Positions 1 through 18,888 of a stretch of 20,678 nt of DNA are shown piece by piece; the first letter of the stretch is position 1; each line of letters starts with the position of its first letter. Source of the stretch: a virus (Duplodnaviria > Heunggongvirae > Uroviricota > Caudoviricetes); the IMG/VR virus record IMGVR_UViG_2925939204_000008. One strand, written 5' to 3'. The notes beneath the pieces were generated by a model. It did not search any database. It was not told the DNA's origin and worked only from the letters and a program-made list of their open reading frames with translations. A program made the position numbers and the translations under genes.

Positions 1-552
1 TTACCTGGTTGCCGGAAATTTTTTATATAGCGTCGATATCCCAACATCGTAAATTAATGCCACACGCTGTCGTGATTCACCTGCTGCAATCAACCTGCCT
101 GCCTGCGCCCACTGTTCATCAGTTAGCTTTGATCGACGCCCACCTATTCGCCCTTCTTCACGAGCCGCAGCCAATCCCGCCCTGGTACGTTCGACTATCA
201 GCTCCCTTTCCATTTCTGCAAGTGCGCCCATGACATGGAAGAAAAAGCGTCCCATTGGTGAAGACGTATCTATGCTGTCGGTCAGGCTGCGAAAGTTAAT
301 ACCCTTTTCCCGAAGCTCCTCCACCAAAACGACAAGATGCCGCATGCTGCGACCGAGTCGATCCAATTTCCAGACCACCAGCGTATCGCCTTCAGACAGA
401 GTCCTGAGTACTTTCTTCAAGCCCGGCCTGTCAGACGTTCTGCCGCTGATCTTATCCTCGAATATCAGTTCACATCCTGCGCACTCCAGCGCGTTTCGTT
501 GCAATGCAGTGTTCTGGTCATTTGTTGACACGCGTACATAGCCGATGAGCAT
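1..552 (-). CDS. pin: Serine recombinase, DNA invertase of the Pin/Gin/Hin/Cin family
   Basis: 183-aa ORF with stop at 1-3; resolvase-type N-terminus (MLIGYVRVSTNDQ with the nucleophilic Ser, LDRLGRS, GRFFFHVMGALAEMERELI) and C-terminal HTH; close to Pin/Gin by recall. Confidence 0.9.
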   Translation of the reverse strand: MLIGYVRVSTNDQNTALQRNALECAGCELIFEDKISGRTSDRPGLKKVLRTLSEGDTLVVWKLDRLGRSMRHLVVLVEELREKGINFRSLTDSIDTSSPMGRFFFHVMGALAEMERELIVERTRAGLAAAREEGRIGGRRSKLTDEQWAQAGRLIAAGESRQRVALIYDVGISTLYKKFPATR

Positions 553-606
553 GAGAAATAACCCTGTAAAAATCCGGGATCATGCCATCTGAGCCGAATA
601 ACTGCA

Positions 607-632
607 TTTTCTAAAAGGTTGGTTTGGGAGAA
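607..632. other. pix/gix-like 26-bp invertase crossover site (one half well conserved, other half degenerate)
   Basis: Minus-strand reading TTCTCCCAAACC AA CCTTTTAGAAAA resembles the gix/hix pattern TTCnnnnAAACC..GGTTT..GA.AA; sits 55 bp upstream of the pin start, where the pin-proximal site is expected. Confidence 0.4.
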
Positions 633-971
633 GCGGCTAAAAGGAATGTAGGGACAGGGGCGAATCAGATACCTGATATGGGTAGCTTCACGCTTTCTGT
701 TTCAGGTACTGGATATCAAAAATTACCATCAGGTTTTATTCTTCAGTGGGGCTCAATCGGCGCACCAGGCATTGCACAGGATGTAGTAACCCATTTCCCG
801 ATTGCATTTCCAAACAGATGTCTGCGTGTTTTGGTCTCACAAGACTACACACCAGATAGCGGGGCTGTTGGTTATATTGCCTGTGCAGGTTTTAGTCCCG
901 ACCCGGTTAAATTTATATCCAGAGCCAGTACTCCTGGCCTCGGCGCTTCATTTTTAGCGTTAGGCTGTTAA
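624..971 (+). CDS. Tail fibre C-terminal (variable-region) fragment; reading frame opens inside the crossover site and has no canonical ATG
   Basis: 115-aa ORF starting with TTG inside the pix-like site and reading away from pin, as expected for the alternative variable tail-fibre segment of an invertible G/P-type region; Gly/Ser/Thr-rich composition. Confidence 0.4.
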
Positions 972-1155
972 TTTAGCTATATGGAGTGAAAAATGAATTA
1001 CATATATTCCGCGACTACAAACTCTTTCTATCCGCTGGAGATGAAAGAGGATTACCCCAGCTCGCGGACATCCTTCCCGGTGGGTTCATCAAACTCCAGT
1101 ACGGAGAGTGTCTCACCATGAGCGATAATCGGTTTCTTTAACTCAAGCTCTTTCA

Positions 1156-1512
1156 TTACTGGTAATCCCCTTCTTCACCGTGGAACTCAAGATCAACCGT
1201 GCCTTCTTCGGCATTATGGTTCGCTTCTCCGTGCAGCCAGGCGGACGACAATACATAGACCTGACCGTTCGCCAGCTCGGCAGTGATGGTCATCTCATCA
1301 GACGAGGTGATTTTGCTCACCGGAAAATTCTTCGGCACCTTGAAGGTCCCTTTGACATAAGGCGCACGGTGAGTTTCCTTGCGGTCCACTGAACCGTCCA
1401 GGCCGATGATGTCATCATTGACCGTCCTGTTCATGGGCACCTCAATGCCGCCGGTCAGCGATAGCTGCTGACCGTCAATTTTGAAATAACAGGTTCCCCC
1501 GATACGGGCCAT
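1156..1512 (-). CDS. Putative contractile-tail tube protein (Mu gpM-like)
   Basis: 118-aa ORF immediately downstream of the sheath-like gene with start/stop overlap at 1512; size and position fit a tube protein; not searched. Confidence 0.5.
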   Translation of the reverse strand: MARIGGTCYFKIDGQQLSLTGGIEVPMNRTVNDDIIGLDGSVDRKETHRAPYVKGTFKVPKNFPVSKITSSDEMTITAELANGQVYVLSSAWLHGEANHNAEEGTVDLEFHGEEGDYQ

Positions 1513-2651
1513 TATGCAGACTCCTCTGAATACTGAAGACGGAACTGGTTAACCACGGCAAAAACACGCAACTGGTTAACATAGTCAGGCGGGAACAGCG
1601 TGTTCAGGCGGTTCGGATCGCTGGCATCACGCTCAACAACCAGGTACTGCTTAAACAGTTCGTAGTTTTCCACGATCCCCGCACACTCAAGCTGACGGTA
1701 GGTTGCCAGCAGTTCCCCTTTGATTACCGCCGGGGTGACAATCGCCTGACCGGGACCAAAGCGGGTACCGTCGCTGGCAAGCTTGTGACGCCCGTACTTA
1801 CTGGTAATGACGGATTTCAGTTTGCGCAGTACATACGCACTGGTATGCAGCGTCTCGCTGTCGAGGTAGCTGTTATCCGCAACCCCGTAAGCATTTTTCC
1901 TGTACGTGGTGACATCACGCTGAATGCGCACCAGCGTGTTAACGGAGGCCGTGTCGTTGAACGGCAGACCGATATAATCAAACGGCTCATCCGCCATTGC
2001 AGCCACCGCGCCGGTGAGAACCGGAGCGCCCGTTCCGGCGGTCCCCGTCGCCACGGCAATCTGTACGCCCGCTGGCAGCACTTCACCCCCACCGAAGCCG
2101 TAGTAATTGAGGCTGACAGGAATTTCATTCCCGCAAAGCCCCTTATGACGCGCGGTCAGCGTGACAACACCAGCCGAAGATGAAGCTGTAAACGGCAGAG
2201 TCGGAACGGCATTGATGGCATCCTGGATACTGCTGGCAATCGTCGTGACGTTATCGCCGTTGGTCACCGGAGCCTGCACACGGGTACGTCCCACATAGAC
2301 ATTCACCGTGCCGCTTTCGGTTGCTTCCCCGGTCACCGTCAGCGTAACCGTTGCCGCCGCGCCTGTGGCTTCCGGAACGGCAATCACATACAGCTCGCCA
2401 AACGGGTCAGTCTGGCGATAAGCCTCGACCATACGCGCCAGCTGACTTCCCGCACCACAAATCTGGCGTGCATAGTCTGCCGACGGCATCAGCACCAGGC
2501 TGTTGGCAACAATCTCTGCACCGTTATTGGCATGACCAATCAGCAGCGATGCTCCGCTGTCCTGTGCAGTATTCGCCGCCGAGTTATCCATTTCCGCATA
2601 AAACAGCGGAACCAGCGTATTCGACGGAATGGTGTTAAAGCTTATCGTCAT
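1512..2651 (-). CDS. Putative contractile-tail sheath protein (Mu gpL-like)
   Basis: 379-aa ORF, Gly/Thr/Val-rich beta-type composition, tightly coupled to the 118-aa downstream gene; sheath-tube pairing inferred from order and size. Confidence 0.55.
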   Translation of the reverse strand: MTISFNTIPSNTLVPLFYAEMDNSAANTAQDSGASLLIGHANNGAEIVANSLVLMPSADYARQICGAGSQLARMVEAYRQTDPFGELYVIAVPEATGAAATVTLTVTGEATESGTVNVYVGRTRVQAPVTNGDNVTTIASSIQDAINAVPTLPFTASSSAGVVTLTARHKGLCGNEIPVSLNYYGFGGGEVLPAGVQIAVATGTAGTGAPVLTGAVAAMADEPFDYIGLPFNDTASVNTLVRIQRDVTTYRKNAYGVADNSYLDSETLHTSAYVLRKLKSVITSKYGRHKLASDGTRFGPGQAIVTPAVIKGELLATYRQLECAGIVENYELFKQYLVVERDASDPNRLNTLFPPDYVNQLRVFAVVNQFRLQYSEESA

Positions 2652-2805
2652 CGGTGTTCACCTTTTTATTCACGCGCCGGATATCACCCGCGGCTTCACG
2701 GCGCAGCCAGTAGTTGTTCTCGTCAACATTTCGCCCTTCGGCGGGCAAAAGGTCGCCGCGGGCAGGGTCAGGCACTGACCGCCCTTTAACAGGTTTCACA
2801 AACAT
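2635..2805 (-). CDS. Small conserved phage protein (56 aa) between terminase and sheath genes
   Basis: Not in the ORF track; ATG at 2805 lies 8 nt after the terminase stop and the ORF overlaps the sheath start by 17 nt; translation MFVKPVKGRSVPDPARGDLLPAEGRNVDENNYWLRREAAGDIRRVNKKVNTDDDKL. Confidence 0.4.
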   Translation of the reverse strand: MFVKPVKGRSVPDPARGDLLPAEGRNVDENNYWLRREAAGDIRRVNKKVNTDDDKL

Positions 2806-2813
2806 GATGATTC

Positions 2814-3944
2814 TCAGGAAGGAAGGGTTATTTCGGTGTGATGTTCGATATCGCCGTCAGGCCCGTTACCGGGATCGAGATAATCAACATCAATCGCCAG
2901 CGTTCGCAGTTCATCTAGACTGTTCAGGTCATCCTGCTGGCGGGTATCGTCTTCAGTCAGCTCGCTGATGACCGAAAAATCGAACTGATAAATCAGCTCA
3001 TGACGATTCAGATCCAGCAGCGTACCGCCGTCATAGGTAATCGGGTTACCGCACGCTTCCGGGTTAGCTTTTTCCAGCACCTGTGGGTCGGTCCAGTCGT
3101 CACCTTCGTCAACGGTATAGATGATCCCGAACAGTTCATCGTTGGGTACCGACCCGTTGAGCATCTCGATAACTTCCCGCCGCTTGTCGTAGCACGGCCC
3201 CTCAATGTTGTACCCGGCAGTAGTAATGGCCCACATCAGTGGCTGACGTCGCGCCCCCATCCCGGTAAGCATCGTGGTGTAAAGCGCGTCGGTGGCGTGC
3301 TCGTGATATTCATCCACCACCGCACAGTGGGGTGATGATCCATCACCGGGGTTACCGATCAGCGGTTCAAACCGCGCGCCATCCTCCGGACGGTTCATGT
3401 TTGAGGCGTTAACCTCAATCCCGAACGCTTCCGTCAGCATGGGTGTGCGTTTACACATCAGTCGCGCCGGGCGAAAGACTTCCCACGCCTGTTTCTCTGT
3501 CGTGGCACCGGAATACACTTCCGCGCCAAACTCGTTATCACAGGCAAAACAATACAGGGCGACACCGGCAGAGATTGCCGATTTGCCGTTCTTACGGGGA
3601 ATTTCGGTATACACCTCCCGGAAGCGGCGCAGCCGGATACCTTTATTGACCCAGCCAAACGCACAGCAGATCACAAAGAGCTGCCACGGCTCCAGCGTGA
3701 TGGGCATCCTCTTGAATGCCCACTCCCCCTTGGTGTGCGGCAACAGTTGAATAAATTTGGCGGCCCGTTCAGCCAGGTCCTTGTCGAAGCGGTAACGAAA
3801 CGACTTACTTTTTTCCGCCATCAGGTCATCAAGATGGCGCTGGCAGGCCTGAATCACAAACTGGCAGGCCACAATCTTTCCGCGCACGACATCACGGGCA
3901 TACTGATTGGCAGCATTTACGTTGGGGTAAGATTTCCGGCTCAT
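2814..3944 (-). CDS. Phage terminase large subunit, ATPase domain only (truncated; nuclease domain missing)
   Basis: Walker A-like PRKNGKS, Walker B-like [14 protein letters not shown] motif; 376 aa is too short for a full TerL and the C-terminal ~70 aa is an acidic low-complexity tail. Confidence 0.7.
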
Positions 3945-4406
3945 GACTCGATGATTTTCAGAAACGGGTTAGTGGCTTTCTTCTGCCCCGCCAGGCCAAT
4001 CAGACGCTGGCGGCTGCTGGGGTCGAGTCCGAGCATTGCCCCCGTGCTGCTCATCTCGGACTCCTGTTCTTTTTTGGCGGTCAGCTCCGGATTTTTGACC
4101 CTGCCGCCCATTGCACCGGTGATGGTGTTGCCCTGTATCAGGAAGAGACACAAAGACGCCATTTGCAGACTGCGCCACAGCGTCAGCAATGAAGTGAGTT
4201 CCACCTGCACGTTGCAAAATCATTGCCCATCCCAGCGGGAAAATCTGATCGCCATCGGCACGAAGGCGGTTAAATAATGCGTTCTCTGTTACATCCAGCC
4301 AGTCAGCAGCTTCAGCGTACCCCCCCGGCAACGCTGCGATAGTTTTTCTGACAGCTTTCACGTACCACTCAGGCTGTTTTTCTACTTTCCAGTGATGCTT
4401 ACCCAC
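3941..4406 (-). pseudogene. Frameshifted small DNA-binding gene upstream of terminase large subunit (terminase small subunit-like or CII-like)
   Basis: N-terminal part in ORF 3969..4406 (HTH-like GGYAEAADWLDVTENALFNRL) turns to low-complexity read-through; C-terminal part in the +1 frame (3941..4210) ends in an ATGA overlap with the terminase start; frames swap around 4110-4170. Confidence 0.45.
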
Positions 4407-4659
4407 GGTTCACCTCCTGTTCCTGTGGTTTAAACCCATTCTGGTTTTGGCTAGATTGAAAACGTGCCGGATAAAGAATCTGCATTTCGCTGACTTCACC
4501 CTTAAAAAAATTGGCTAAACGTTCTGCAAGCTCGATAGATGGAATCTGCTCCAGCCTCTCAATACGACTCAACGTCGCTGGATTGACTTGAACACCCGCA
4601 GCAACATGCTGCAAAGTGAAACCATGCGCCTTACGCACATTTCGTAATGGTGATTGCAT
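4399..4659 (-). CDS. Cro-like HTH (XRE family) DNA-binding protein
   Basis: 86-aa ORF with HTH (FTLQHVAAGVQVNPATLSRIE), divergent from the CI-like repressor across a 97-bp operator-containing intergenic region. Confidence 0.7.
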   Translation of the reverse strand: MQSPLRNVRKAHGFTLQHVAAGVQVNPATLSRIERLEQIPSIELAERLANFFKGEVSEMQILYPARFQSSQNQNGFKPQEQEVNRG

Positions 4660-4673
4660 ACGCCCTCCAAATA

Positions 4674-4736
4674 TTGCGCGTTATGCATGTTATTTCACGC
4701 AATTATTTTGCGCAAGTTGATTTGCTTATCACGCAA
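4674..4736. promoter_or_regulatory. Operator region of the cI-like/cro-like divergent pair (TTGCG..CGCAA palindromes)
   Basis: TTGCGCG-N15-CACGCAA (4674-4702), perfect palindrome TTGCGCAA (4708-4715), TTTGC-N7-CGCAA (4722-4736), all between the two divergent start codons. Confidence 0.45.
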
Positions 4737-4756
4737 TAAAGAAATGTAATAAACGC

Positions 4757-5449
4757 ATGAACATAGGAAACCGAGTCAGACAACTTCGCCAAGCGAAGAA
4801 CATGAAAATCGCCGATCTCGCTGAAGCGATAGGAGTAGATGCGGCGAACATCTCGCGCTTAGAAACGGGTAAGCAAAAACAATTTACCGAACAAACACTG
4901 AGTAATATTGCCAAGAGCTTAGGTGTTGATATTGCTGATCTCTTTACCTCTGCCCACAAAAGTAATACTGTATATAAAAACAGTAATAATGAGGATGTTG
5001 CGCAGGTGAAGGATGTGTTCCGTATTGAAATGCTGGATATCAGTGCCAGTGCGGGAAATGGCCTTATCCAGGGCGGTGATGTCATTGATGTGATTCATGC
5101 CATCGAATACAGAACTGATAATGCTGTATCAATGTTCGGCGGACGACCAGCCAATCACATCAAAGTTATCAACGTTCGTGGGGACAGTATGTGTCCAACC
5201 ATTGAGCCAGGAGATCTCATCTTCGTTGATGTCAGCATCAATCAGTTTGATGGTGATGGTATATATGTCTTTGGTTTTGATGACAAAATATACGTTAAAA
5301 GACTTCAAATGATTCCTGACAAACTGCTGGTGATTTCTGATAACCAGATTTACCGTGAATGGGGAATTACTAGCGAAAACGAACACCGATTCATGGTCTT
5401 TGGAAAGGTCTTAATCAGTCAGTCGCAAACCCTTAAGAGACATAATTAA
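4757..5449 (+). CDS. CI-like phage repressor, N-terminal HTH plus C-terminal LexA-like S24 peptidase domain
   Basis: 230 aa; N-terminal HTH (MKIADLAEAIGVDAANISRLETG); C-terminal S24 signature GDSM (Ser) and downstream KRL (Lys). Confidence 0.85.
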   Translation: MNIGNRVRQLRQAKNMKIADLAEAIGVDAANISRLETGKQKQFTEQTLSNIAKSLGVDIADLFTSAHKSNTVYKNSNNEDVAQVKDVFRIEMLDISASAGNGLIQGGDVIDVIHAIEYRTDNAVSMFGGRPANHIKVINVRGDSMCPTIEPGDLIFVDVSINQFDGDGIYVFGFDDKIYVKRLQMIPDKLLVISDNQIYREWGITSENEHRFMVFGKVLISQSQTLKRHN

Positions 5450-5468
5450 CCTCAATATCCCATCCATC

Positions 5469-5491
5469 GGCCACCGAAAGGTGGCTTTTTA
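5469..5491 (+). terminator. Rho-independent terminator after the repressor gene
   Basis: GC stem GCCACC / GGTGGC with GAAA loop followed by TTTTTA. Confidence 0.7.
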
Positions 5492-5502
5492 TTACCTATA
5501 AA

Positions 5503-5540
5503 TTTGCATATATAGCAAATATAACTTGCATATCTCGCAA
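5503..5540. promoter_or_regulatory. Two operator-like palindromes (TTTGC-N7-GCAAA and TTGC-N7-GCAA) upstream of the xis-int operon
   Basis: TTTGCATATATAGCAAA (5503-5519) and TTGCATATCTCGCAA (5526-5540) share the TTGC/GCAA half-sites seen in the cI-cro intergenic region. Confidence 0.4.
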
Positions 5541-5845
5541 TTTAATTTTATCTTTTGTTCCAGACCAACTACAGGATTACAACAAAATCTGGTTGCAACA
5601 CGGTGCATGTGTCGTAAGCAGTCAGTAAATGTCAAAAACGAACAGGCAGGACGCCCACGAAGTAGCCGCCTGGGGCATATGAAGTCCAGGATGATTCGTT
5701 AGCAACAAAAAAGCGCCCTACAGGACGCTTAGCTCTTTAACAATCTGGTCCCCATCAACAAGTAACTGATAACTTGAGGAGACCTTGAAAACGTCAATAT
5801 CACTCACTGGGCAGTAATGCCAAAAGCACCGGAGGCTGGAGCATA

Positions 5846-6151
5846 ATGACCACTTTTACCGACAAAGAACTGATTAAAGAAATTAAAGAGCGTATCAGCA
5901 GCCTTGACGTGCGAGACGATATTGAGCGCCGTGCTTATGAAATCGCACTCCTATCTCTGGAAGTAGAACCAGATGAACGCGAAGCTTATGAATTATTCAT
6001 GGAAAAGCGTTTCGGTGACTTAGTAGATCGTCGGAGAGCAAAAAACGGCGATAACGAATACATGGCATGGGATATGACTCTCGGTTGGATCGTCTGGCAG
6101 CAACGAGCAGGTATCCATTTTTCAACAATGTCACAACAAGAGGTGAAATAA
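5846..6151 (+). CDS. Hypothetical protein (101 aa), translationally coupled to xis
   Basis: ORF with acidic helical composition; stop TAA overlaps the xis ATG (TAATG at 6149-6153). Confidence 0.5.
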   Translation: MTTFTDKELIKEIKERISSLDVRDDIERRAYEIALLSLEVEPDEREAYELFMEKRFGDLVDRRRAKNGDNEYMAWDMTLGWIVWQQRAGIHFSTMSQQEVK

Positions 6152-6501
6152 TGGAGCCATACAGCCTCACACTCGATGAGGCCTGTCATTTTCTCAAGAT
6201 ATCCAGACCGACTGCCATTAACTGGATACGCACAGGGCGTCTTCAGGCAACACGCAAAGATCCCACTAAGAATAAATCTCCTTACCTCACAACACGACAA
6301 GCCTGCATTGCGGCTCTTCAGTCTCCGCTGCATACTGTCCAGGTGAGCGCGGGTGATGGCATAACAGAGGAAAGAAAATGTCACTCTTCCGCAGAGGTGA
6401 AATATGGTACGCCAGTTTCACATTGCCGAACGGTAAAAGATTTAAACAGTCTCTTGGAACAAAGGACAAAAGGCAGGCGACAGAACTCCATGACAAGCTA
6501 A
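6151..6501 (+). CDS. xis: Excisionase / AlpA-like DNA-binding protein
   Basis: [33 protein letters not shown] is a typical excisionase HTH; start chosen at the ATG at 6151; reading frame stays open to 6501, overlapping the int start by 124 nt, so the true end is uncertain. Confidence 0.65.
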
Positions 6502-7541
6502 AGGCTGAAGCATGGCGGGTCAGCAAACTTGGTGAAATACCTGATATAACGTTCGAGGAAGCGTGTGTCAGGTGGCTTGAAGAGAAAGCACATAAAAAAT
6601 CGCTGGACGATGACAAAAGCCGGATCGGATTCTGGCTTCAACATTTCGCAGGAATGCAACTAAGAGACATTACTGAATCAAAAATTTATTCAGCAATGCA
6701 GAAAATGACGAACCGGCGTCATGAGGAAAACTGGAAACTCAGGGCAGAAGCATGCAGAAAAAAAGGGAAACCTGTTCCAGAATACACGCCAAAACCAGCG
6801 TCCGTTGCAACGAAGGCTACGCATCTTTCATTTATAAAGGCCCTACTAAGAGCCGCAGAGCGTGAATGGAAAATGCTGGATAAGGCACCAATTATTAAAG
6901 TGCCTCAACCAAAGAATAAACGGATCCGCTGGCTGGAGCCCCATGAAGCACAAAGGCTGATTGATGAATGTCCGGAGCCATTAAAGTCTGTTGTTGAATT
7001 TGCACTGGCAACAGGCTTAAGACGCTCGAACATCATCAACCTTGAATGGCAACAAATAGATATGCAGCGCCGGGTGGCATGGATAAACCCGGAAGAGAGT
7101 AAATCAAACCGCGCAATTGGCGTTGCGCTGAATGATACTGCATGTCGCGTATTGAAAAAACAAATCGGGAATCATCACCGTTGGGTATTTGTGTACAAGG
7201 AAAGCTGTACCAAACCAGACGGAACGAAAGCGCCAACAGTAAGGAAGATGCGGTATGACGCAAACACAGCCTGGAAAGCGGCGCTGAGACGGGCTGGTAT
7301 TGATGATTTCAGATTTCACGACTTGAGACACACCTGGGCAAGTTGGCTGGTTCAAGCCGGAGTCCCGTTGTCAGTGTTACAGGAAATGGGAGGCTGGGAG
7401 TCTATCGAAATGGTTCGTCGATATGCTCACCTTGCACCTAATCACCTTACCGAACACGCACGGCAAATAGACTCGATCCTGAACCCATCGGTCCCAAATT
7501 TGTCCCAGTCAAAAAATAAGGAAGGTACTAATGATGTGTAA
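6378..7541 (+). CDS. int: Tyrosine recombinase, phage integrase (e14 IntE-like)
   Basis: 387 aa; N-terminus [14 protein letters not shown]; catalytic-type motifs HDLRHTWAS and VRRYAHL; good RBS GAGGAAAG. Confidence 0.9.
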
Positions 7542-7713
7542 CTTATTGATTTTAATGGTGCCGATAATAGGAGTGTAACACGCGATAAATCTTGTGTTCG
7601 GGTCTTCTTCTACGACCTTCGCAACTACCTGATTTAACGATTTTTACGCACACTGATAATCTGGCATTCATCATGCACATGATAAACGCCCCTAAACTTT
7701 AACGGGGTGGAAA

Positions 7714-8937
7714 ATGAAATACAAGCCGGATCAATACATCATATCTGATAGTTACGGAGTTTATTACGTCAGGATTTCAATTCCTGTATGGCTTCGTAAT
7801 GCATTTGGTGGAAGAAAAACTCTCGTCCGTAGTCTGAACACTTCCGATCTTCGTGTGGCTCGTAGGAAGCGTGATGTTATAGCCGACGAATTTCACCACA
7901 TCAGGCAAATTGCAGAGCCGCCAAAACCGGACAGCTTGCAGGACACGATCAGCTTTTTAAAGAGCGTGGCTAAGTACGCGAAAGCTGCCCCGAAAGCATC
8001 AGCTCCGATTATCTACCAATGCCCCTCTCTGAATAAGATGTTAGAGATTTACCTCACGCATAACGCTGATCGCCTGAAAATGGGAACATTAAGCAAGACC
8101 AGAAAAGCCGTTGAACTGTTCCTGAATTACCTGCGAAAGAAGGATGTTGAACTAAACGATATCAACCGTACCACCGTTACAGGCTGGCTTGATCATCTCC
8201 GAGAGACAAAGGCAGTCCAGACAGTGGCTAACTACCTATCAGCAATGGCAAACATTCTCGATCTTGCCTCTTCCCGATACCAGGACGCCCCACCGCTGGA
8301 AACTAACGTGTTCAGGGGGCATAAACTCAACACAGCGCAGAGCCGCCAGAGTTACGAGGCATTCACGGACGAAGAAATTACGAAGCTCATTAGCACGTTT
8401 AACAAGTTAGGAGAGGACGAATTAAGGGATGTGAGCGCCATCGCCGCTTATAGCGGAATGCGCATCAATGAAATAGCCAGTTTGAAATCTGACAATATCC
8501 GTGAAGTTGAGGGGGTGTTATGTTTCGAGGTGACGGAGGGTAAGACACGCAATGCGGCGCGGTTGGTTCCACTTCATAGTGCGATTAGAAAAATGGTTCT
8601 GGAACGCTGCCAGAAGCCGCACAACGGCTTTTTATTCTACCGTGCAAGTGTGACCAAGAGACAGGACGGCAAGCGCTCCTCATGGCACGTAAACCGCTTT
8701 GGACGGCTTAAACGCGATATTCTCCCAGGGCAGGAAAACAAGGTGTTTCACTCGTACCGCCATGCAGTGATCAGTAAGCTAAACGCCGCCGGAGTGGATG
8801 AATCTCGTATTGCCTTGCTCGCGGGTCACTCATTTGGAGAAACTGAGTCTTTCAAGACGTATTCGAAGAGTGTTCCTGAGCGTATTATGAAGGAGTTAGC
8901 GGGGTATATTGAATTAATAAATTACAACGTCCAGTAA
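7714..8937 (+). CDS. int: Tyrosine recombinase, integrase of genomic-island type
   Basis: 407 aa; C-terminal catalytic region with HSYRHAVIS and a downstream Tyr; long N-terminal arm/core-binding region. Confidence 0.85.
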   Translation: MKYKPDQYIISDSYGVYYVRISIPVWLRNAFGGRKTLVRSLNTSDLRVARRKRDVIADEFHHIRQIAEPPKPDSLQDTISFLKSVAKYAKAAPKASAPIIYQCPSLNKMLEIYLTHNADRLKMGTLSKTRKAVELFLNYLRKKDVELNDINRTTVTGWLDHLRETKAVQTVANYLSAMANILDLASSRYQDAPPLETNVFRGHKLNTAQSRQSYEAFTDEEITKLISTFNKLGEDELRDVSAIAAYSGMRINEIASLKSDNIREVEGVLCFEVTEGKTRNAARLVPLHSAIRKMVLERCQKPHNGFLFYRASVTKRQDGKRSSWHVNRFGRLKRDILPGQENKVFHSYRHAVISKLNAAGVDESRIALLAGHSFGETESFKTYSKSVPERIMKELAGYIELINYNVQ

Positions 8938-8967: not shown

Positions 8968-9246
8968 TCATTTATTCCATTCGTTTTGAATTTGATTCTC
9001 AACTGCTGGCAAAAGGTTATACCAGGAAGCAGAGTTATTCTTAGCATCAACAACAATCAACTTATCATCGCTATCCATCGCTGCCCGAACTTTTCTGGCA
9101 GCCTCTTCAACCGAATAATTCGAATTTACGTACCAGTTCGACTCGGTAACTTTTGCCCAGTTGCCCAAGGCCTTGATAGCATCATGCACAGCAGCATAAT
9201 CTTTGGTTTTGATCAAGTCATAGGTTACAAACAAGTTGTTAGCCAT
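8968..9246 (-). CDS. Hypothetical small protein (92 aa)
   Basis: ORF at the distal end of the minus-strand operon; N-terminal beta-strand-like LFVTYDL. Confidence 0.5.
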   Translation of the reverse strand: MANNLFVTYDLIKTKDYAAVHDAIKALGNWAKVTESNWYVNSNYSVEEAARKVRAAMDSDDKLIVVDAKNNSASWYNLLPAVENQIQNEWNK

Positions 9247-9304
9247 TTAATTCTCTCCAGACATTCAAATGAATAAGCACCGCTATGGGCACTTTGAGAT
9301 ATTT

Positions 9305-9433
9305 TTATTTCTTAGCTTTCTTGGTAGGGATTTTGATAGTTTCAGTTATCGTAGTATCAGGATGTCGTTTAGCTTCAATGGGCTTAACAAACTGACCAGT
9401 TATCGCAGAACGAACTACTGTTTTCTTAGCCAT
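9305..9433 (-). CDS. Small basic protein (42 aa), not in the ORF track
   Basis: ATG at 9433 preceded by GAGGTG with 5-nt spacing; translation MAKKTVVRSAITGQFVKPIEAKRHPDTTITETIKIPTKKAKK. Confidence 0.3.
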   Translation of the reverse strand: MAKKTVVRSAITGQFVKPIEAKRHPDTTITETIKIPTKKAKK

Positions 9434-9584: not shown

Positions 9585-11435
9585 TCATCCCCCTGTGGAT
9601 GACTGACCGCTCAAGGCTGATAGCGTAAGGCTACGAGTGAATGAATCCGCACTCGCTTTTGCAGACCAGTCGATATAGTCAGACAATCGAGAAACATCAC
9701 TTTGCAGAGTCAATCCCACTTGTGGATTCACTTGTAGGTTGAATATCGGGTTCAACGTGTACGCTGGCGCGTTGCTGCTGTTGAGCGACATTGCCGAAGC
9801 ACGGAGATTTTCCCCTGAAAGGCTGTATTGATTAGTCGCTGTCCCTGCTTGCTGATTACCAACGCCCAACCAATCCATGATAGCCGGAGCCACTGAACGG
9901 GTATCAAACCCCGTTTTATCCTGAATCCAATCGGCCGTAGCATTCGCAGAGCCACCCACAGCACCATCATAAAGATTTTGAACAGCAGGTTTCTTAGTAT
10001 CGCTAAACCATTCAGGGTGTTGTTGGCGGAGAGTACTGTTAAGATCAGACACTACGCTGGAGATTTCTCCAACAAAGCCCGTCACCTGTTTAGCCAGGTC
10101 GCCTAATCCCTCTCCGAGCATACCAGCAGATTCTGTTATCACTTTGGTGTTCTTCACCAGGTCGTCACCACCATCAGCAAAGCCTTTCATAAAGCCTGTA
10201 AACATGCTGTTATCAACGCCATTCATGAGATTACCCATCGCTACACTCAGATCACCATATGCAAGAGTTTGCTTGATCTGCTCCTCGTTAAGAGTTTGAC
10301 CACTATCGACAAGCTGTTTCAGCGTCTTGTTATATTCTGCACCGTTGTTCATGAACATATCGGTGTAGTGCATCAGGTCATCACCTAAACTCTCTATAAG
10401 CGTACCAATCTGAGCCTGTGACATACCACGGCGTTGCCCTTCATTGGTAACTGCTTGAAGTAGATCAGCAGGACGATCCTGGAAGGATTTAATCTGTTCT
10501 TTGCCCCATCCAAACTTATTCATAATAGAAGTGATACCACCATCGCCGCCTTTCCATTCGCCATTTTTAAACTGGCTATCGTTCAGGGTCATAGCGATAC
10601 GTTCACGTACATCTTTGAAATTGTCCGTCACTTTATCGACATTGGCGCTATCAACTCCGTGTTGCTGCCCCCATGCCACCATCGTTTTAACTACGTTAGG
10701 ATTAGTCTTAACAAGTTCCGATTTTCTAACCAAGTCAAGATTTTCATTCCCTTTGTCAACAATTCGCTGCCCCACTCCGAGGGAGCCAGCCGTTAACGCA
10801 AGGCTTCCTAATACCCCACCACCGACGATAGGAGCATTCCCGCCCTTCTGAGCCTTTAGCTTAGTGGCTGCTGCGGCATACTGGGTACGCTGTGCCTGTG
10901 TCACTTTCGCTTGTTGTGCGGCTTCTCTGCGTAACAGGGTTACACGCTCGCGTATAAGCGCATTCATACGTTGAGAGCTAATATTCCCCTTCGCAAACTC
11001 TTCGCTTTGCTGATGAATATAACGTAACGCTTCATACTGAGATTTAGGATCAAGCCCGTATTTACCTTTAATTCCTGACACTTGTAGCCCTGCATGGCGA
11101 AGTTTAAGCTCGGCTGTCTCTTGGCGCTTCTGTAGCTGCTGCTTCGCTTTCAGATTGGCCTTTTCATCCCTGGCTTTCTGCTTCTCCGCCGCACGTTGGG
11201 CTTTCATTTCCTTCGTATCACGAGGCTTATCATTAAAACGTGCATCATCGGCTTGTTGACGGGCTTTCTGTCTGCGCTGCTTCAGATCCTGGAAGCGAAT
11301 CTTGGGATCGGCTATTTTCTGGAAGTGCTTTTGAAGGTTATCCGCTGCGGCCTTAGCCTCTGCAATACTCCCTTTGTCAACGGTGAAAGTTACGGTGTTG
11401 ACGATCTTACTTGTATTAATCTCAAGCATCGCCAC
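9585..11435 (-). CDS. Large structural-type protein, tape-measure-like (coiled-coil N-terminus, Gly-rich hydrophobic segments)
   Basis: 616 aa; K/R/Q/E-rich coiled-coil N-terminus then APIVGGGVLGSLALTAGSLGVG-type segments; GTG at 11435 or ATG at 11429 as start; function inferred from composition only. Confidence 0.4.
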   Translation of the reverse strand: MAMLEINTSKIVNTVTFTVDKGSIAEAKAAADNLQKHFQKIADPKIRFQDLKQRRQKARQQADDARFNDKPRDTKEMKAQRAAEKQKARDEKANLKAKQQLQKRQETAELKLRHAGLQVSGIKGKYGLDPKSQYEALRYIHQQSEEFAKGNISSQRMNALIRERVTLLRREAAQQAKVTQAQRTQYAAAATKLKAQKGGNAPIVGGGVLGSLALTAGSLGVGQRIVDKGNENLDLVRKSELVKTNPNVVKTMVAWGQQHGVDSANVDKVTDNFKDVRERIAMTLNDSQFKNGEWKGGDGGITSIMNKFGWGKEQIKSFQDRPADLLQAVTNEGQRRGMSQAQIGTLIESLGDDLMHYTDMFMNNGAEYNKTLKQLVDSGQTLNEEQIKQTLAYGDLSVAMGNLMNGVDNSMFTGFMKGFADGGDDLVKNTKVITESAGMLGEGLGDLAKQVTGFVGEISSVVSDLNSTLRQQHPEWFSDTKKPAVQNLYDGAVGGSANATADWIQDKTGFDTRSVAPAIMDWLGVGNQQAGTATNQYSLSGENLRASAMSLNSSNAPAYTLNPIFNLQVNPQVGLTLQSDVSRLSDYIDWSAKASADSFTRSLTLSALSGQSSTGG

Positions 11436-11738: not shown

Positions 11739-12770
11739 TTAAGCAGTGATGGTGATCTTCACCTGCATACCTAACGCATGGTTCACTGGTAATGCGCTGT
11801 TTTCGTGCATAACGTGGTAAGCATCGCCGCGCTCGCTCAGGTAGCCCCAAGAGTAGTATTCAGCAGGTGCAGCATCGATCAGCGCAAAGTTACCAGAGGC
11901 AGCGCCGTAGATGTTCTGATAAGCATTTGTGCCTTTACTGAACACCGGAACCGCCACCATGTCAGCATCATCTGGCATCTGTGCAAGGATCAGCGGATCT
12001 GTCACTTTAACAATGTCGATAGGCGCACCAGGTAGGCTAAACGTACTAACACCAGGGAGAAGCTCGTGACGCTGGTAGAATAGGTTACGGTCGTCATATG
12101 GCGCTACATACTGGAACGCCTTAGACATACTGTCAGAGAAGCGAATCTGGCTAAATGCAGCAGGTTTAGCGAATACGATCACTCGTTCAATCTGTCCAGC
12201 CAATCCACCTGCGGCAGCCTGAACTTTGTCTAAGATCGCATCAAAATCCTGTGCCGCTGTCGCTGTGCTCACGCTGGCTGTCATTGGCACCACACCGAAC
12301 AGTTCAGCATAAGAGATCAGTAGGTCATCAGTTGCAGGCGTATAAACTTCACCTTTGAACAGAGCACGGGCCAGGTAAGACTCACGGGTACGCAGATAAG
12401 CAATCTTATGTTTGCCAGTGTATTCGGTGTACAGGTCGGTAACGGTTTGCTCGTAGTCCGTTCCCTGCACTCTGCGGCCTTGTACGTCTACAGGTTTAAA
12501 CTCATCTTCCCTTGCAAACCAAGGAATCTCGATAAGGTATTCTTTGCCATTCTGACGCGCGGTAGTGTCGTGGTTTGATGAATAACGGCTCTGCGGGGTG
12601 TTAAACAGGCTGTAGTTATCATCCAGAAGCTGTGTCACCACCACTTTCGGATTCTGAACACCTACCCCGTCGAATAGGTCGAGGGCATTCATAAGATAGT
12701 TACGTTCCGGCAGAGCCTGGAAGATTGGCGCTAAATCGACCATCTCACGCCCAATTGCGATTTTACTCAT
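11739..12770 (-). CDS. Putative major capsid protein (lambda gpE-like size and position)
   Basis: 343 aa (lambda gpE is 341 aa), directly downstream of a ~119-aa gene as in the lambda D-E pair; assignment from size, order and composition, not from confirmed similarity. Confidence 0.45.
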   Translation of the reverse strand: MSKIAIGREMVDLAPIFQALPERNYLMNALDLFDGVGVQNPKVVVTQLLDDNYSLFNTPQSRYSSNHDTTARQNGKEYLIEIPWFAREDEFKPVDVQGRRVQGTDYEQTVTDLYTEYTGKHKIAYLRTRESYLARALFKGEVYTPATDDLLISYAELFGVVPMTASVSTATAAQDFDAILDKVQAAAGGLAGQIERVIVFAKPAAFSQIRFSDSMSKAFQYVAPYDDRNLFYQRHELLPGVSTFSLPGAPIDIVKVTDPLILAQMPDDADMVAVPVFSKGTNAYQNIYGAASGNFALIDAAPAEYYSWGYLSERGDAYHVMHENSALPVNHALGMQVKITITA

Positions 12771-12786
12771 TATTTATCTTCCTTGA

Positions 12787-13146
12787 TTAAGAGGTGAAGA
12801 ATGGACGGCATACGAACCCTTTGGATTCGAGCGTGGTGATAGCTGCGGCGTGATTAGCTGCGTGCAGGTTGTCGGCTTTCAGTGCTACGAAGCTACCAAC
12901 ATTAGGCGCACGTAGGACATTCACGGTTTTACCGTCGCCAGCACTCACGAAATCACTTACCACCACAAAGGCATCATCGCCGGAGGTGTATAGAGCGCCA
13001 TCAGCGCCGATAACATCGCCGCATTCAATATCTGCTGGCAGGTCGAAAACACGGCCTTCTACGACTGCAAAAGAATCAGTGGCGTAGCTCAATACGTCAG
13101 TGAAACTCTTACGAATTGGGAAAAGTTCGGTTAGGTCTACAATCAT
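12787..13146 (-). CDS. Putative head decoration or small capsid-associated protein (gpD-like position)
   Basis: 119 aa, Gly/Ala/Val-rich, immediately upstream of the capsid-like gene. Confidence 0.3.
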   Translation of the reverse strand: MIVDLTELFPIRKSFTDVLSYATDSFAVVEGRVFDLPADIECGDVIGADGALYTSGDDAFVVVSDFVSAGDGKTVNVLRAPNVGSFVALKADNLHAANHAAAITTLESKGFVCRPFFTS

Positions 13147-13358
13147 TGTTGTTTGATTTCCTTGGATTTGATTGCGATCCGTTCCTGCATACTAAGTTGA
13201 GGTGTGTCCTCAGAAGGGAAATACTGGTCTACAGCTTTTTCTATTTCTTCAACGGTACATCCTGCCATTTCAGCCACTTTAGCTATTAACTCAGGATTAA
13301 CTTGAATCACTTCGGATTTGTATTTTAGGATTCGGTCGCGATTGTTTATTAAGAACAT
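13143..13358 (-). CDS. Hypothetical small protein (71 aa), first gene of the structural operon
   Basis: ATG at 13358 preceded by GAAGGAA; stop overlaps the next start (ATGA at 13143-13146). Confidence 0.45.
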   Translation of the reverse strand: MFLINNRDRILKYKSEVIQVNPELIAKVAEMAGCTVEEIEKAVDQYFPSEDTPQLSMQERIAIKSKEIKQQ

Positions 13359-14024: not shown

Positions 14025-14363
14025 TTATGTTATGGCGCATTCTTCCGCGATCTGGATGGAAAGCTCTCCGAGTTCAACGGTGATGTATTGCAGAGAGCAA
14101 GCAAGCTCCTCAAGGTCATTAGCTACACGCCACGCTTCTTCTGGTGTGATCGAACTGCCGTCACGCTGCACCAAACGAGCTACAGACGTTTGCAGATGTT
14201 CAAGGGCAGTGATTGCCTGTTCAGTGTATTGCACCGCTTCCAGAAGCGCGGAGGGCGTTCTCTCACGCCACGCTGCATTAACAAGCTGTAAGGTTGGTAA
14301 ATGCCAGTTGTCGTGGAAAGAGTTAATTAGGGTGTTCACTGTGTCCATAGTTTTATTATTCAT
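14025..14363 (-). CDS. Hypothetical protein (112 aa from the ATG at 14363)
   Basis: ORF track gives 14025..14459; the ATG at 14363 overlaps the upstream stop (14356-14358) and is the likelier start. Confidence 0.45.
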   Translation of the reverse strand: MNNKTMDTVNTLINSFHDNWHLPTLQLVNAAWRERTPSALLEAVQYTEQAITALEHLQTSVARLVQRDGSSITPEEAWRVANDLEELACSLQYITVELGELSIQIAEECAIT

Positions 14364-14739
14364 TGTTTTCCTTGTCGTCAAAGAGAATATCAAACTCTTG
14401 TGTGTGCTGGGATAGCCCCCAGGTTTGACAATACCCAATATAATCGGCGTAATGTTCAAATCCTGCTATTTGCCATTTCTTGAGATGGCTACTATCTATA
14501 ATATATTCGCGTCTGCGTCGTGGTTTGTAATAAACGTTATCCGTTGACGATAGAACATCCTGCAATAGTTCAAACTCTAATCCATTTGGTACTACTGCGG
14601 GATATTCTTTAATAGTTGTCACCATCTCACCAGGAATAGACTCTCGTGCGAGGTCTTGTAGAGAAGAGGTGTATTTACGTTTGCTGATGCGTGTGGCTTT
14701 TTCGATTCTAACAAGGTTACTTCGTTCTTTTCGTCCCAT
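14356..14739 (-). CDS. Hypothetical protein (127 aa)
   Basis: ORF in operon context; basic N-terminus; no recognisable motif. Confidence 0.45.
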   Translation of the reverse strand: MGRKERSNLVRIEKATRISKRKYTSSLQDLARESIPGEMVTTIKEYPAVVPNGLEFELLQDVLSSTDNVYYKPRRRREYIIDSSHLKKWQIAGFEHYADYIGYCQTWGLSQHTQEFDILFDDKENNE

Positions 14740-14843
14740 TCATTCCTCGTAGAGGGGAAACTCCTTGTCTGGTTATAACGTAAACGCCATAGAATATGGT
14801 GAACCACCATAAAGCAGTAATCATAAAAGTTTCCCGATTGTTG

Positions 14844-15305
14844 TTATTTAGTCGTAAGTGTAATGTCGCATCCTTTACCGCGACCAGGTTTGATTAACGT
14901 AGTAGTTAGATAATCATTGCGGCGAAGCTTGCGAATCGCACTGGATACAGTTGCCACACTTATCCCCAACACTATCGCTATTGACTCCTGTTTCACATTT
15001 GTTAATGATGGCAGTGATTCGAGGTGCATTAATACCAGACGTTCCGAAGGAGACAGATTCTTATCGTGAAGATGTGGGGATGTCATTTTACATTCTATCT
15101 CTTTCGGTGGCTTCATCGCTGCATTGAATAGCGTAACAAGAGCATTAGCGTAACTTGATTCACCTCGCTCAGCGTAAACATCTACAAGTTCTTGCGCTTG
15201 TTCGAATGCAACACCTCTTTCAACTTCTGGATTTAATAAACTGGCAAGATGGATGATGTTAAGATCACGTTCGTTGTATTGTTTGGGTATAACCGTTTTC
15301 AGCAT
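14844..15305 (-). CDS. Winged-helix (MarR-like) DNA-binding protein
   Basis: C-terminal wHTH-like LSPSERLVLMHLESLPSLTNVKQESIAIVLGISVATVSSAIRKL. Confidence 0.5.
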   Translation of the reverse strand: MLKTVIPKQYNERDLNIIHLASLLNPEVERGVAFEQAQELVDVYAERGESSYANALVTLFNAAMKPPKEIECKMTSPHLHDKNLSPSERLVLMHLESLPSLTNVKQESIAIVLGISVATVSSAIRKLRRNDYLTTTLIKPGRGKGCDITLTTK

Positions 15306-16039
15306 AAATGTTCTATTTCCTCGTAGATTGGTTTAAGTTTTGGATTCTTCTCTGTGTCCAGGTATCCGTTAATAAGTAGCCATCTGATTTTCGGATGTTG
15401 TGAAACTGGTAGATTCTTTTCAGGATTCTCCCATTCATCCCGATAACCCTCAAGAAAGTTTAAATTAACTGGCTCTATCTTAATATCTTTAGCTGGAATG
15501 GAGGCGGGTTTCTTCGTAGGCATTTTCTTTGGCTTCTCCGGCTTCGGATCTGCTTTGGCCTCTTCTGGCACTGACTGCTGTTTTTCTTCCTCTGGCGCTA
15601 CGTCTTCTTTAGCTTTGCCAAACACGGGATGTTTCAGACAATCTACCCATTCCGGCGCGGAATCACGTTCCATCGCATTACGATCACGTTCAAAGGTGAA
15701 GTTTTGCGGCGTGAGTGGCGTTATAGTCCATTGGTTAGAGCGCTTTGGCTTATTACTGGCGATCAGTCCGATTTTCTTCAACTTTGCAACAATACGTGTT
15801 GCCGTAGCCGAGCTGACACCAATACTTGCACCAAGTTGATCAATGTCATCGTAATAAGTACCGCCCAACTCTATCGCAAAGCGATAATAACGATGGCGCA
15901 TTCTGACGTAAAACTGCTTATCAGCAGGAGACAGGGACTCTGTTACGCCTGTTTTAAGATTGGTGATCCTGGTGCATTCGTTAAATGCGTCTTCGGTGTT
16001 GGTGAAACTAAAAGCCTTACTGTTTATAATGTCAGTCAT
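15299..16039 (-). CDS. DNA-binding protein with lambda O-like architecture (N-terminal wHTH, K/P/E-rich linker, C-terminal domain); possible replication initiator
   Basis: SPADKQFYVRMRHRYYRFAIELGG...GVSSATATRIVAKLKKIGLI resembles the replication protein O N-domain by recall; long low-complexity linker. Confidence 0.4.
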   Translation of the reverse strand: MTDIINSKAFSFTNTEDAFNECTRITNLKTGVTESLSPADKQFYVRMRHRYYRFAIELGGTYYDDIDQLGASIGVSSATATRIVAKLKKIGLIASNKPKRSNQWTITPLTPQNFTFERDRNAMERDSAPEWVDCLKHPVFGKAKEDVAPEEEKQQSVPEEAKADPKPEKPKKMPTKKPASIPAKDIKIEPVNLNFLEGYRDEWENPEKNLPVSQHPKIRWLLINGYLDTEKNPKLKPIYEEIEHLC

Positions 16040-16053
16040 GTTAGGGTGTATCC

Positions 16054-16230
16054 TTATTTGGTAGAACGTTCTCCGTTCTTAATTGATGTGGAAAGTGTGG
16101 TTGCAGCGTCAATTAACATCTCCTGCACTGTTACGCCTCTCGCTCGCGCCTCTTTGAACAAAGTACTAAACACTTCATCCGGCAGTTTTACGAATGTTCC
16201 GGCTGGTTTCTTCTTCTGGATTTCGCTCAT
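16054..16230 (-). CDS. Ribbon-helix-helix (Arc/CopG-like) DNA-binding protein, 58 aa, not in the ORF track
   Basis: ATG at 16230 preceded by AAGGAG; MSEIQKKKPAGTFVKLPDEVFSTLFKEARARGVTVQEMLIDAATTL has a beta-strand then two helices as in RHH repressors. Confidence 0.5.
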   Translation of the reverse strand: MSEIQKKKPAGTFVKLPDEVFSTLFKEARARGVTVQEMLIDAATTLSTSIKNGERSTK

Positions 16231-16248
16231 TTGGTTTCTCCTTCTGGT

Positions 16249-16497
16249 TTATTCGTTGGTGGTGGTTTCAGCCTGTTCAGCTTTCCATTGATCGTAAAGT
16301 TCGATTCCTTTACGCAATCTTTCAGCGTGTTCGAAATATCCTTGCCGTTGTGCGGCTGCTCGCTGGCTGTTTATTGCATTTCGCGTCTGGCTTCCGGCCT
16401 TTAAAGCCTCGAAGACAAGTTCTGGATTAAAATACTTAATTTTGGTTCTCCTTGCGTTAGAAACACAGAAACACCATCCAGGGAGAACGTTAATCAC
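16249..16497 (-). CDS. Hypothetical protein, first ORF of the regulatory operon (start uncertain)
   Basis: ORF track uses a GTG start at 16497; an ATT codon with AAGGAG 7 nt upstream is an alternative. Confidence 0.35.
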   Translation of the reverse strand: MINVLPGWCFCVSNARRTKIKYFNPELVFEALKAGSQTRNAINSQRAAAQRQGYFEHAERLRKGIELYDQWKAEQAETTTNE

Positions 16498-16592
16498 GTT
16501 GCCTGATAGTGCGGTGTAAGTTGGATTGTTTGCGTTAGGCTGGATGCCTGAGATGAGGACGGGATGAATGCTTTCATTACCCTACATCATTT

Positions 16593-16672
16593 ACTTTAAC
16601 ATGAAATGATTTAAGTGTCAACACTTATTTAAATCCCTTTCAAATTATAGCGCATTTCCACGTTGTGATCAA
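16593..16672 (-). promoter_or_regulatory. Two tandem sigma70-like promoters directed into the minus-strand regulatory operon
   Basis: TTGATC (16667-16672) 17 nt TATAAT (16644-16649), and TTGACA (16616-16621) 17 nt TAAAGT (16593-16598), read on the minus strand. Confidence 0.4.
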
Positions 16673-17223
16673 CTCATTCATGTCATCATAAAACGCGGTC
16701 TATCGCTTTCTAACAGGTTTGAAAGCCTGAGAGTTGCAATCCCCTCCCTATCCTCTCAAATTCGCTCTCAGCGCGTCTGGGGCGTTCCGTTTGCGTTACC
16801 GCCGCCCTCTGGCACTTACTCCCGAAACCAATAGCACAACTACTGAGGGATAACGTTAGTTATCAGGATAGTAGGTGATGGTATTGGATTGAGGCTGGAT
16901 GAACTGGAGCCATCAGCGACCAGTGAATCCTTAGCCGTGGGCTAACTTTGCATGGATGAATGCGGAGCATGGAAGACAGGCAGAAGTTATGCTGAAAGAC
17001 ATTGCGCACACGGCGCATAGCTTCTGTGCCTCGTTTCACGAGGGCGAAGCCCTGGCACAATCACAGACAGATGCGCTACGCTGCGTCGTGAGCGGCTGAC
17101 CGAGTAGCCCCCAAAGGCGAATCAGGTCACTTGCCAGGCGATACGCGCCAGCAAAGCGAATCTTTAACAAGATCTTCTAAAAGCTCTCTTTTAGAGATCG
17201 CTTTTAGAATCTCTTTGTATAGA

Positions 17224-17305
17224 ACATCAATTTGATGTGTAGTTTGCCGATCCATACATCAATTTGATGCGTATCCCATGCATCTATACATCATTTTGAT
17301 GTATA
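17224..17305. repeat. Three 18-bp direct repeats at exactly 32-bp spacing, each with an internal palindrome ACATCAA(t)TTGATGT
   Basis: ACATCAATTTGATGTGTA (17224-17241), ACATCAATTTGATGCGTA (17256-17273), ACATCATTTTGATGTATA (17288-17305). Confidence 0.8.
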
Positions 17306-18830: not shown

Positions 18831-18888
18831 CAATTGAAGAAGGAAGACAAGCAGATAACCAGCGTGGTCTGGTGCGGTGTATAAGTAA

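Follow-up and report, generated by a model that had tools for sequence, protein, structure and literature searches.

Here we describe two mobile elements lying in tandem at the tRNA gene thrW of Escherichia coli, within a 20,678-nt stretch of DNA (the window throughout this text) that is held in IMG/VR as a record of a Caudoviricetes virus (IMGVR_UViG_2925939204_000008). Two tyrosine integrase genes, int1 and int2, lie close together on one strand of this stretch; the first belongs to a decayed prophage, here called P1, and the second to an island, here called E2. The arrangement is very probably a tandem of two separate elements at one thrW gene, in which P1 arrived first and E2 second, the latter within the last 19-20 bp of the thrW copy that P1 had regenerated.

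The window is the thrW integration hot spot of E. coli adjoining proA. The chromosome of E. coli AR_0118 and six other complete genomes match it at 100% identity, and it was analysed together with 12 kb of flank (locus L001; window coordinates equal L001 coordinates minus 12000) and against a survey set of 5426 complete E. coli genomes. The gene order across the locus is paoABCD, the window, thrW and proA-proB. According to RefSeq annotation and ARAGORN, thrW encodes tRNA-Thr (CGU) on the minus strand at window-equivalent positions 21259-21334, ~580 bp past the window end; in K-12 the same site is taken by CP4-6. A search of the whole window against Rfam gave no family matches.

Two integrases and the junction between them

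The features around the junction are as follows.

6378-7541, plus strand: int1, 387 aa, ATG start; SfIV/P22-type tyrosine integrase specific for thrW
7542-7555: int-proximal arm of an SfIV-type attP, CTTATTGATTTTAA, identical to SfIV attP (L004 5164-5177)
7556-7574, minus strand: att junction, an exact 19-bp copy of thrW nt 58-76, reading TGGTGCCGATAATAGGAGT on the plus strand
7575-7713: int2-proximal arm of the E2 attachment site, identical in the genome XYEH3934, which has E2 alone, with a homologous arm in the E2 relative of the genome GF153
7714-8937, plus strand: int2, 407 aa, ATG start; tyrosine integrase of E2 with DUF6538, SAM-like and catalytic domains

The two co-oriented genes are intact and only distantly related. 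Both exceed the cut-off of 27.1 bits for the Pfam family Phage_integrase (PF00589), int1 with 164 bits (E 3e-48) and int2 with 50.8 bits (E 2e-13), and the N-terminal part of int2 additionally matches the Pfam DUF6538 and SAM-like domains. The catalytic residues are present in each (the Arg of ATGLRRS, H314-x-x-R317, W340 and Y349 in int1; R250, H346-x-x-R349, H372 and Y383 in int2), but the two proteins share only 24% identity over 180 aa, confined to the catalytic domain, with a pairwise E-value of 1e-4. An earlier reading of this DNA, made from the sequence alone (hereafter the sequence-only reading), had described two unrelated-looking integrases in tandem on one strand, 172 bp apart, and the open reading frames (ORFs), Pfam matches and pairwise comparison bear this description out.

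Over its 387 aa the int1 product does not differ from the integrase of the Shigella serotype-converting phage SfIV (100% identity), and it is 89.9% identical to Int of Salmonella phage SPN9CC. By BLASTP it has no significant similarity to IntE of the K-12 element e14 (E 0.18), and int2 matches IntE over 21 aa only. RefSeq places the start of int1 at 6423 (372 aa), and an upstream ATG at 6378 (387 aa) overlaps the excisionase gene; the upstream start is reasonable because the 387-aa form matches the annotated SfIV integrase over its full length. Orthologues of int2 in other genera are 49-66% identical (32% in L023) and occupy the same end of their elements, which in E2 is the end far from the tRNA gene, with transcription directed inward. 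The spacer between int1 and int2 and its surroundings yielded neither a sigma-70-like promoter nor an intrinsic terminator.

The spacer, 7542-7713, had been expected to contain an att junction, and the junction is found there. The exact 19-bp match to thrW at 7556-7574, for which shuffled sequences give an expectation of 0.00, coincides with the limits of homology: genomes with P1 only align up to 7574, and genomes with E2 only align from 7546. This sequence is the displaced tRNA fragment, where E2 has its distal end and P1 its end towards thrW. In the attP of SfIV, CTTATTGATTTTAA stands after the int stop codon and precedes 46 bp that match thrW nt 76->31 exactly, whereas in the window the same arm adjoins only the first 19 of these 46 core bp. 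The complete core (thrW nt 31-76) is thus not found beside int1, which retains nt 58-76; the remainder lies 13.7 kb off in thrW. The other marks of an SfIV/P22-type module are all present, namely an orthologous Int, xis upstream, an attP arm downstream and a second copy of the core (attR). The last 10 bp of the CTTATTGATTTTAA arm are identical to the native chromosomal flank of thrW (TTGATTTTAA), and XYEH3934, K-12 and the distal junction of P1 likewise have these 10 bp outside the core.

On the other side of the 19-bp core, the E2 arm carries at 7610-7623 the sequence CTACGACCTTCGCA, which corresponds to thrW nt 52->39 and is separated from the core by 35 bp absent from thrW. The E2 relative of GF153, whose Int is 53% identical to int2, shares the layout of this split tRNA-like segment, CTACGACC included. 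Two copies of CAC-N2-GATAA (7579 and 7676) and a near-copy, CACACTGATAA, around 7650 are also found in the arm. The 46-bp, 19-bp and full thrW copies all have one orientation, and int1 and int2 are distributed one to each interval between them.

Genomes lacking one or the other element, with which the sequence-only reading had proposed a comparison, were found for both, and in each the remaining element is at thrW. XYEH3934 and RM10410 have no P1 and carry an E2 relative (~89% DNA identity, Int 95%) between thrW and the native flank; their distal junction is identical to window positions 7546-7713, and their proximal junction lies inside thrW. E2 is bounded accordingly by a 19-bp direct repeat, TGGTGCCGATAATAGGAGT (thrW nt 76->58; 20 bp counting one extra shared A), the two copies of which are found in this genome at 7556-7574 and inside thrW. 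Enterotoxigenic E. coli H10407, in turn, has a full-length relative of P1 directly at thrW (~37 kb, with a myovirus-type tail and lambdoid regulation; 96.5% identity to P1 in 6 pieces), and its int1 ends 14 bp from the tRNA gene. Since each element is found alone at thrW, int1 and int2 are not parts of one element, and the finding that could have overturned the tandem interpretation, a single element owning both integrases, is not what the genomes contain.

The hybrid junction between P1 and E2 is present in 8 of the 5426 genomes, all 100% identical, and these eight are identical across all 20.7 kb, one of them with an IS100 insertion, so they represent one lineage. All eight hold both integrases, which are adjacent and co-oriented with no terminator-like site found between them, and one might for these reasons suppose that int1 and int2 are parts of one composite element, which moves as one unit. 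This is barely credible: each half occurs alone elsewhere at thrW with its own pair of repeats, the displaced tRNA fragment lies exactly between int1 and int2, P1 is a gene-decayed remnant, and the shared presence of both genes in the eight genomes reflects a single lineage.

Order of arrival

Read in window orientation, the array consists of native flank, a 45/46-bp copy of thrW, P1 with xis-int1 and its attP arm, the 19-bp copy, E2, thrW and proA. The far end of P1 (attR) lies outside the window at L001 5233-5278, where native flank, ...TCTTTGATTTTAA, precedes the 45/46-bp copy and the distal arm of the SfIV attP follows it. We propose that an SfIV-like phage would have integrated first, through its P22-type Int, at the 46-bp identity block (thrW nt 31-76), regenerating thrW beside int1. 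Int2 would then have put E2 into the regenerated gene by recombination within its last 19-20 bp (nt 58-76), giving thrW a new 3' end and displacing the old 19 bp to their present position between int1 and int2. E2 would, in consequence, sit inside the former attL of P1 and split it, so that the int1-proximal arm keeps only nt 58-76 and 13.7 kb now separate that arm from the P22-type core (nt 38-60), which lies at the thrW end of E2. With E2 inside attL, Int1 and Xis would be unable to excise P1 unless E2 leaves first; E2 itself, with its two identical 19-bp repeats, should still be excisable. What the sequence-only reading had called tandem or nested integration is, on this evidence, tandem integration at a single attB with offset crossovers; nesting in the genes of the other element does not apply.

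Both orders of arrival yield the same map, and the argument for order therefore rests on the crossover position of each integrase. The attP core is 46 bp in SfI, SfIV, SfV and P22 (PMC3851460; PMC3636060), and the P22 att site has been quoted as ATGCGAAGGTCGTAGGTTCGACT (PMC8022706), which corresponds to thrW nt 38-60. The 19-bp fragment lacks 20 of these 23 bp, and an SfIV-type phage is therefore unlikely to have entered a fragment displaced by E2. Arrival of P1 first needs nothing unusual, as the last 19-20 bp and the flank required by Int2 are present in a thrW regenerated by P1.

The reverse order, in which E2 entered an empty thrW and the SfIV-like phage came later into the 19-bp fragment displaced by E2 plus native flank, is distinctly improbable. 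It would give the same final arrangement if Int1 had crossed over within nt 58-76, and since TTGATTTTAA is common to the SfIV attP arm and the chromosome, 29 bp of identity would have been available at that site. The displaced fragment is, however, without thrW nt 31-57, which make up most of the 46-bp identity block, in addition to the missing part of the quoted P22 site. Entry by way of the nt 39-52 copy in the E2 arm predicts a 35-bp insert at the distal junction of P1 and contiguous tRNA sequence at the int1-int2 junction, and the opposite is observed at both. The reverse order is also disfavoured by GF153, an independent and analogous tandem in which the order matches that of the window: a P1 remnant that has other deletions but the same int1, then the same 19-bp fragment, the E2 relative and thrW.

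Experimental precedent points the same way. When a strain that already carried SfX was lysogenised with SfI in the laboratory, the newcomer entered the tRNA-proximal attL of the resident prophage (Sun et al. 2011, PMC3306764), so that the incoming thrW phage took the site next to the tRNA gene; by analogy, arrival of P1 first matches this result, and the reverse order does not. The SfX/SfI lysogen shares with the present array the thrW attB beside proA, the integrase family of the first element, the head-to-tail arrangement with an att copy between the elements and the position of the newcomer on the tRNA side. In contrast to that lysogen, the present array has as its second element not a phage with a P22-type Int but E2, an island of 13.7 kb that encodes a capsid and whose unrelated Int uses only the last 19-20 bp of thrW; its resident attL is therefore split and not duplicated, and its first element has decayed to a remnant. 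Arrival of P1 first also fits, by comparison, the sublocation rule and classes described for integrases that use tRNA-gene DNA (tDNA) (PMC4383910; bioRxiv 2020.11.02.365908). Among the 3919 islands in Islander, 125 tandem arrays were recorded (Hudson et al. 2015, PMC4383910); as in those arrays, each member here has an integrase and a displaced tDNA fragment of its own, the latter oriented like the tRNA gene, and the fragments differ in length (46 vs 19 bp), matching different crossover sublocations. We see no essential difference from these arrays, of which the present one is a textbook case.

Several points weigh against the order proposed here. The 14-bp thrW piece (nt 39-52) in the E2 arm overlaps the quoted P22-type core, a feature for which the proposed order does not account. 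The Int2 crossover is bounded by the 19-20-bp identity block only, and the Int1 crossover is taken from literature on relatives of P22. Neither a circular excised E2 nor its attP form was recovered, and the 12-14-kb metagenome contigs that carry E2 relatives, including those of ~13 kb, show no terminal redundancy or overlap and no thrW fragment. None of the 5426 complete genomes has this P1 remnant without E2, and the population data do not show the order; a chimeric query for the reverse-order junction (thrW-side arm of E2, 46-bp core and distal arm of P1, with at least 80% query coverage required) found it in none of them, which is weak evidence as E2 is rare.

It is also conceivable, if rather unlikely, that the array was built elsewhere and brought in whole by homologous recombination of the thrW-pao region, in which case the local order would be uninformative for this lineage. 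The thrW region is mosaic among E. coli, and Pseudenterobacter has the E2 capsid protein at 100% identity; transfer is thus recent and frequent. Import would nevertheless leave the structure unchanged, with two site-specific integrations still required somewhere for the junction, and no donor genome beyond the eight was seen in the survey.

The decayed prophage P1

The part of P1 within the window comprises, besides int1, the following.

1-6066, continuing left of the window: P1 remnant, an SfV/SfIV/e14-like myovirus prophage (Pfam, RefSeq)
6067-6501, plus strand: xis-like HTH_17 gene of P1 (Pfam HTH_17), overlapping the start of int1

The remnant holds a Pin-type invertase, tail-fibre fragments, a tail tube gene, a truncated sheath gene, terminase fragments, a ymfL fragment, a Cro-like helix-turn-helix (HTH) gene, a cI-like S24 repressor and yfdT. 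Many of these genes are flagged by RefSeq as incomplete, whereas xis, the cI-like repressor and int1, the last gene of the element, are intact; the position of the HTH_17 gene matches that of the annotated SfIV excisionase. Most late genes are fragments, yet the Cro-like HTH gene and the gene for the cI-like repressor (HTH plus S24 peptidase), which diverge at 4399-5449, are both intact, and the repressor may still give immunity.

The sequence-only reading had P1 down as an e14-like element that ends with int1. This stands for the structural and regulatory genes, which are e14/SfV-like, but int1 is of the SfIV/P22 type and specific for thrW, not of the e14 type. P1 shares with e14 of K-12 relatives of ymfL, of the Pin invertase and of the tail-fibre assembly genes; it differs in its integrase, as noted above, and in its site, e14 being integrated in icd and P1 at thrW/proA. 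With the SfIV/SfV/P22 module it has in common the integrase identical to that of SfIV, xis upstream and an arm up to the core identical to SfIV attP. It departs from that module in having 19 of the 46 core bp beside int1, in having no gtr serotype-conversion genes and in the deletion of most of the phage body.

It had further been suggested that tandem integration could explain why the cargo that normally follows an e14-type int is replaced here. This does not hold, because in SfIV-type phages the cargo follows attP on the phage map and hence comes to lie at the opposite (attR) end of the prophage (PMC3306764). Only the tRNA gene normally follows the int of such a prophage, as in H10407, and what follows int1 here is just the neighbouring element.

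Two further observations concern the surroundings of P1 and of its H10407 relative. Outside the window, to the left of the P1 invertase, RefSeq annotates an 82-nt 'tRNA-Pro' at L001 9504-9585, where ARAGORN does not find a tRNA; its neighbours are cargo genes (a HEPN protein, IS1 and an SOS-response-associated peptidase). In H10407 a third thrW-targeting element (L002 1672-3097) lies distal to the SfIV-like prophage, behind a copy of the 46-bp core with one mismatch, and has its own integrase directed away from the tRNA gene, so that three-element arrays occur at thrW.

E2 and its family

E2 extends over ~13.7 kb, from 7556 to a point inside thrW ~580 bp past the window, and downstream of int2 contains the following features.

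8968-9433, minus strand: variable accessory slot, with ORFs of 92 and 42 aa; phrog_1090
9585-11435, minus strand: homologue of a tape measure protein (TMP), 616 aa; RefSeq 'TolA'; phrog_16051, E 2e-98
11739-13358, minus strand: capsid module, with a 71-aa ORF, a decoration-protein-like ORF and a major capsid protein (MCP)
11739-12770, minus strand: lambda-gpE-like MCP of this module
12787-13146, minus strand: decoration-protein-like ORF of this module, 119 aa (p119)
14025-16497, minus strand: small ORFs of 112 and 127 aa, both conserved, plus a replication/regulation module with an HTH_36 protein and a DUF6945/O-like initiator
16498-18061: non-coding region of 1.56 kb, with palindromic repeats and an inverted repeat
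18062-18622, plus strand: small tyrosine recombinase, 186 aa, catalytic domain only (PF00589, E 4e-16)
18633-20678: thrW-proximal part, with ORFs of 65, 152, 75, 257 and 52 aa

Related elements form a compact, conserved family of ~12-14 kb with hosts in Escherichia, Enterobacter, Pseudenterobacter, Klebsiella, Citrobacter, Kluyvera, Buttiauxella, Scandinavium, Cronobacter and Pantoea, and with tRNA-Thr(CGU), tRNA-Leu(CAA) or tRNA-Gly(CCC) as target depending on the Int variant. Literature searches turned up no description of these elements, and the family is apparently both widespread and undescribed. DNA resembling the E2 capsid gene occurs in 338 of the 5426 E. coli genomes (~6%), a close variant in only 12-13. 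The MCP of the Pseudenterobacter element is the one that is 100% identical to that of E2. Conserved parts of the family include the O-like/DUF6945 replication module, the palindromic repeats with their 32-bp spacing and the 186-aa recombinase. The recombinase is 96-99% identical in elements of Pseudenterobacter, Buttiauxella and Citrobacter, but the capsid proteins of the Buttiauxella and Citrobacter elements are only 56-59% identical; this module seems to have been exchanged between members of the family.

The 616-aa protein of E2 aligns end to end with the TMP of the lytic Phapecoctavirus myovirus ESCO5 (32% identity, E 5e-88). In GF153 (L005 17821-20404) the gene beside the tape measure homologue and the one next after the TMP gene in the phage share 57% identity, so that a syntenic piece of a lytic-phage tail module is present in an integrative island. 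The MCP and p119 of E2 have no similarity to the major head and decoration proteins of ESCO5 by BLASTP or hhalign. In a metagenomic relative (L007 9566-11108) the Kiwa genes KwaA and KwaB stand in place of the tape-measure slot, so that this slot, lying between capsid gene and integrase, acts as a variable cargo or defence hot spot. The content of the accessory slot at 8968-9433 likewise varies between relatives; its 92-aa protein and an ORF of a variable region in P2-EC53 share 78% identity. Among the ORFs of E2, Pfam and PHROGs detected no portal, protease, terminase, head-tail connector or further tail gene, PADLOC found no defence system in ten E2 proteins, and the 257-aa ORF has no match in the phage collection.

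Three 18-nt palindromes (ACATCAATTTGATGTGTA) with a spacing of 32 bp lie at 17224-17305 in the non-coding region (four copies in strain MS6192), and a perfect 14-bp inverted repeat (16948-16961 and 17325-17338) encloses 363 bp. This region may hold iterons or an origin, an array of operators, or a segment that the small recombinase encoded next to it could invert; as regards a switch through the 14-bp repeat, no inverted orientation was seen in relatives, and the eight identical genomes are collinear.

E2 is probably a phage satellite. The most economical reading of this gene content is that it would be a helper-dependent satellite or tail-interference island linked to Stephanstirmvirinae, a reading that rests on the compact conserved architecture without virion-completion genes and on the Phapecoctavirus TMP homologue. 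Tentatively, and at less than even odds, we put forward the more specific possibility that E2 belongs to an undescribed family of phage satellites of Enterobacterales which has its own shell and parasitises or interferes with large lytic myoviruses. E2 would make a lambda-like shell from its own MCP and a gpD-like cement protein and, as it is without portal, terminase and the rest of a tail, would have to parasitise or interfere with large lytic myoviruses (Phapecoctavirus, Stephanstirmvirinae). Like the phage-inducible chromosomal islands that form capsids (cf-PICIs) and the P4-like and PLE satellites, E2 is small (12-14 kb), integrative and tRNA-targeting, with its own replication module, variable accessory slots (Kiwa in one relative) and capsid genes without the capacity for a whole virion. 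It differs from a cf-PICI, which has all the genes for head and packaging (portal, protease, MCP, connectors and TerS), in having only the MCP and a decoration-like protein, and from P4-type satellites in that no Pfam or PHROG match to the Psu, Sid, Delta or alpha genes was found in E2. Unique to E2 among these are the full-length TMP homologue of a lytic myovirus and the second, small tyrosine recombinase.

Arrays of this kind are already on record at tRNA genes, thrW among them, and the tandem structure itself is therefore ordinary; it is a clean and fully explained example of a tRNA-gene hot spot gathering elements and is mainly useful for annotating element borders. The offset crossovers offer a simple means by which one mobile element may immobilise another through disruption of its attL. 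If this is true, the arrival of E2 would, as a possible side effect of its recombination in the last 19-20 bp of thrW, split the attL of any resident P22/SfIV-type prophage, which would stay locked until the satellite leaves. The E2 family, for its part, pairs capsid genes of its own with a tape measure gene akin to that of strictly lytic therapy phages; if E2 is a satellite or a tail-interference defence, this would have a bearing on phage-therapy host range, and E2 merits follow-up in its own right.

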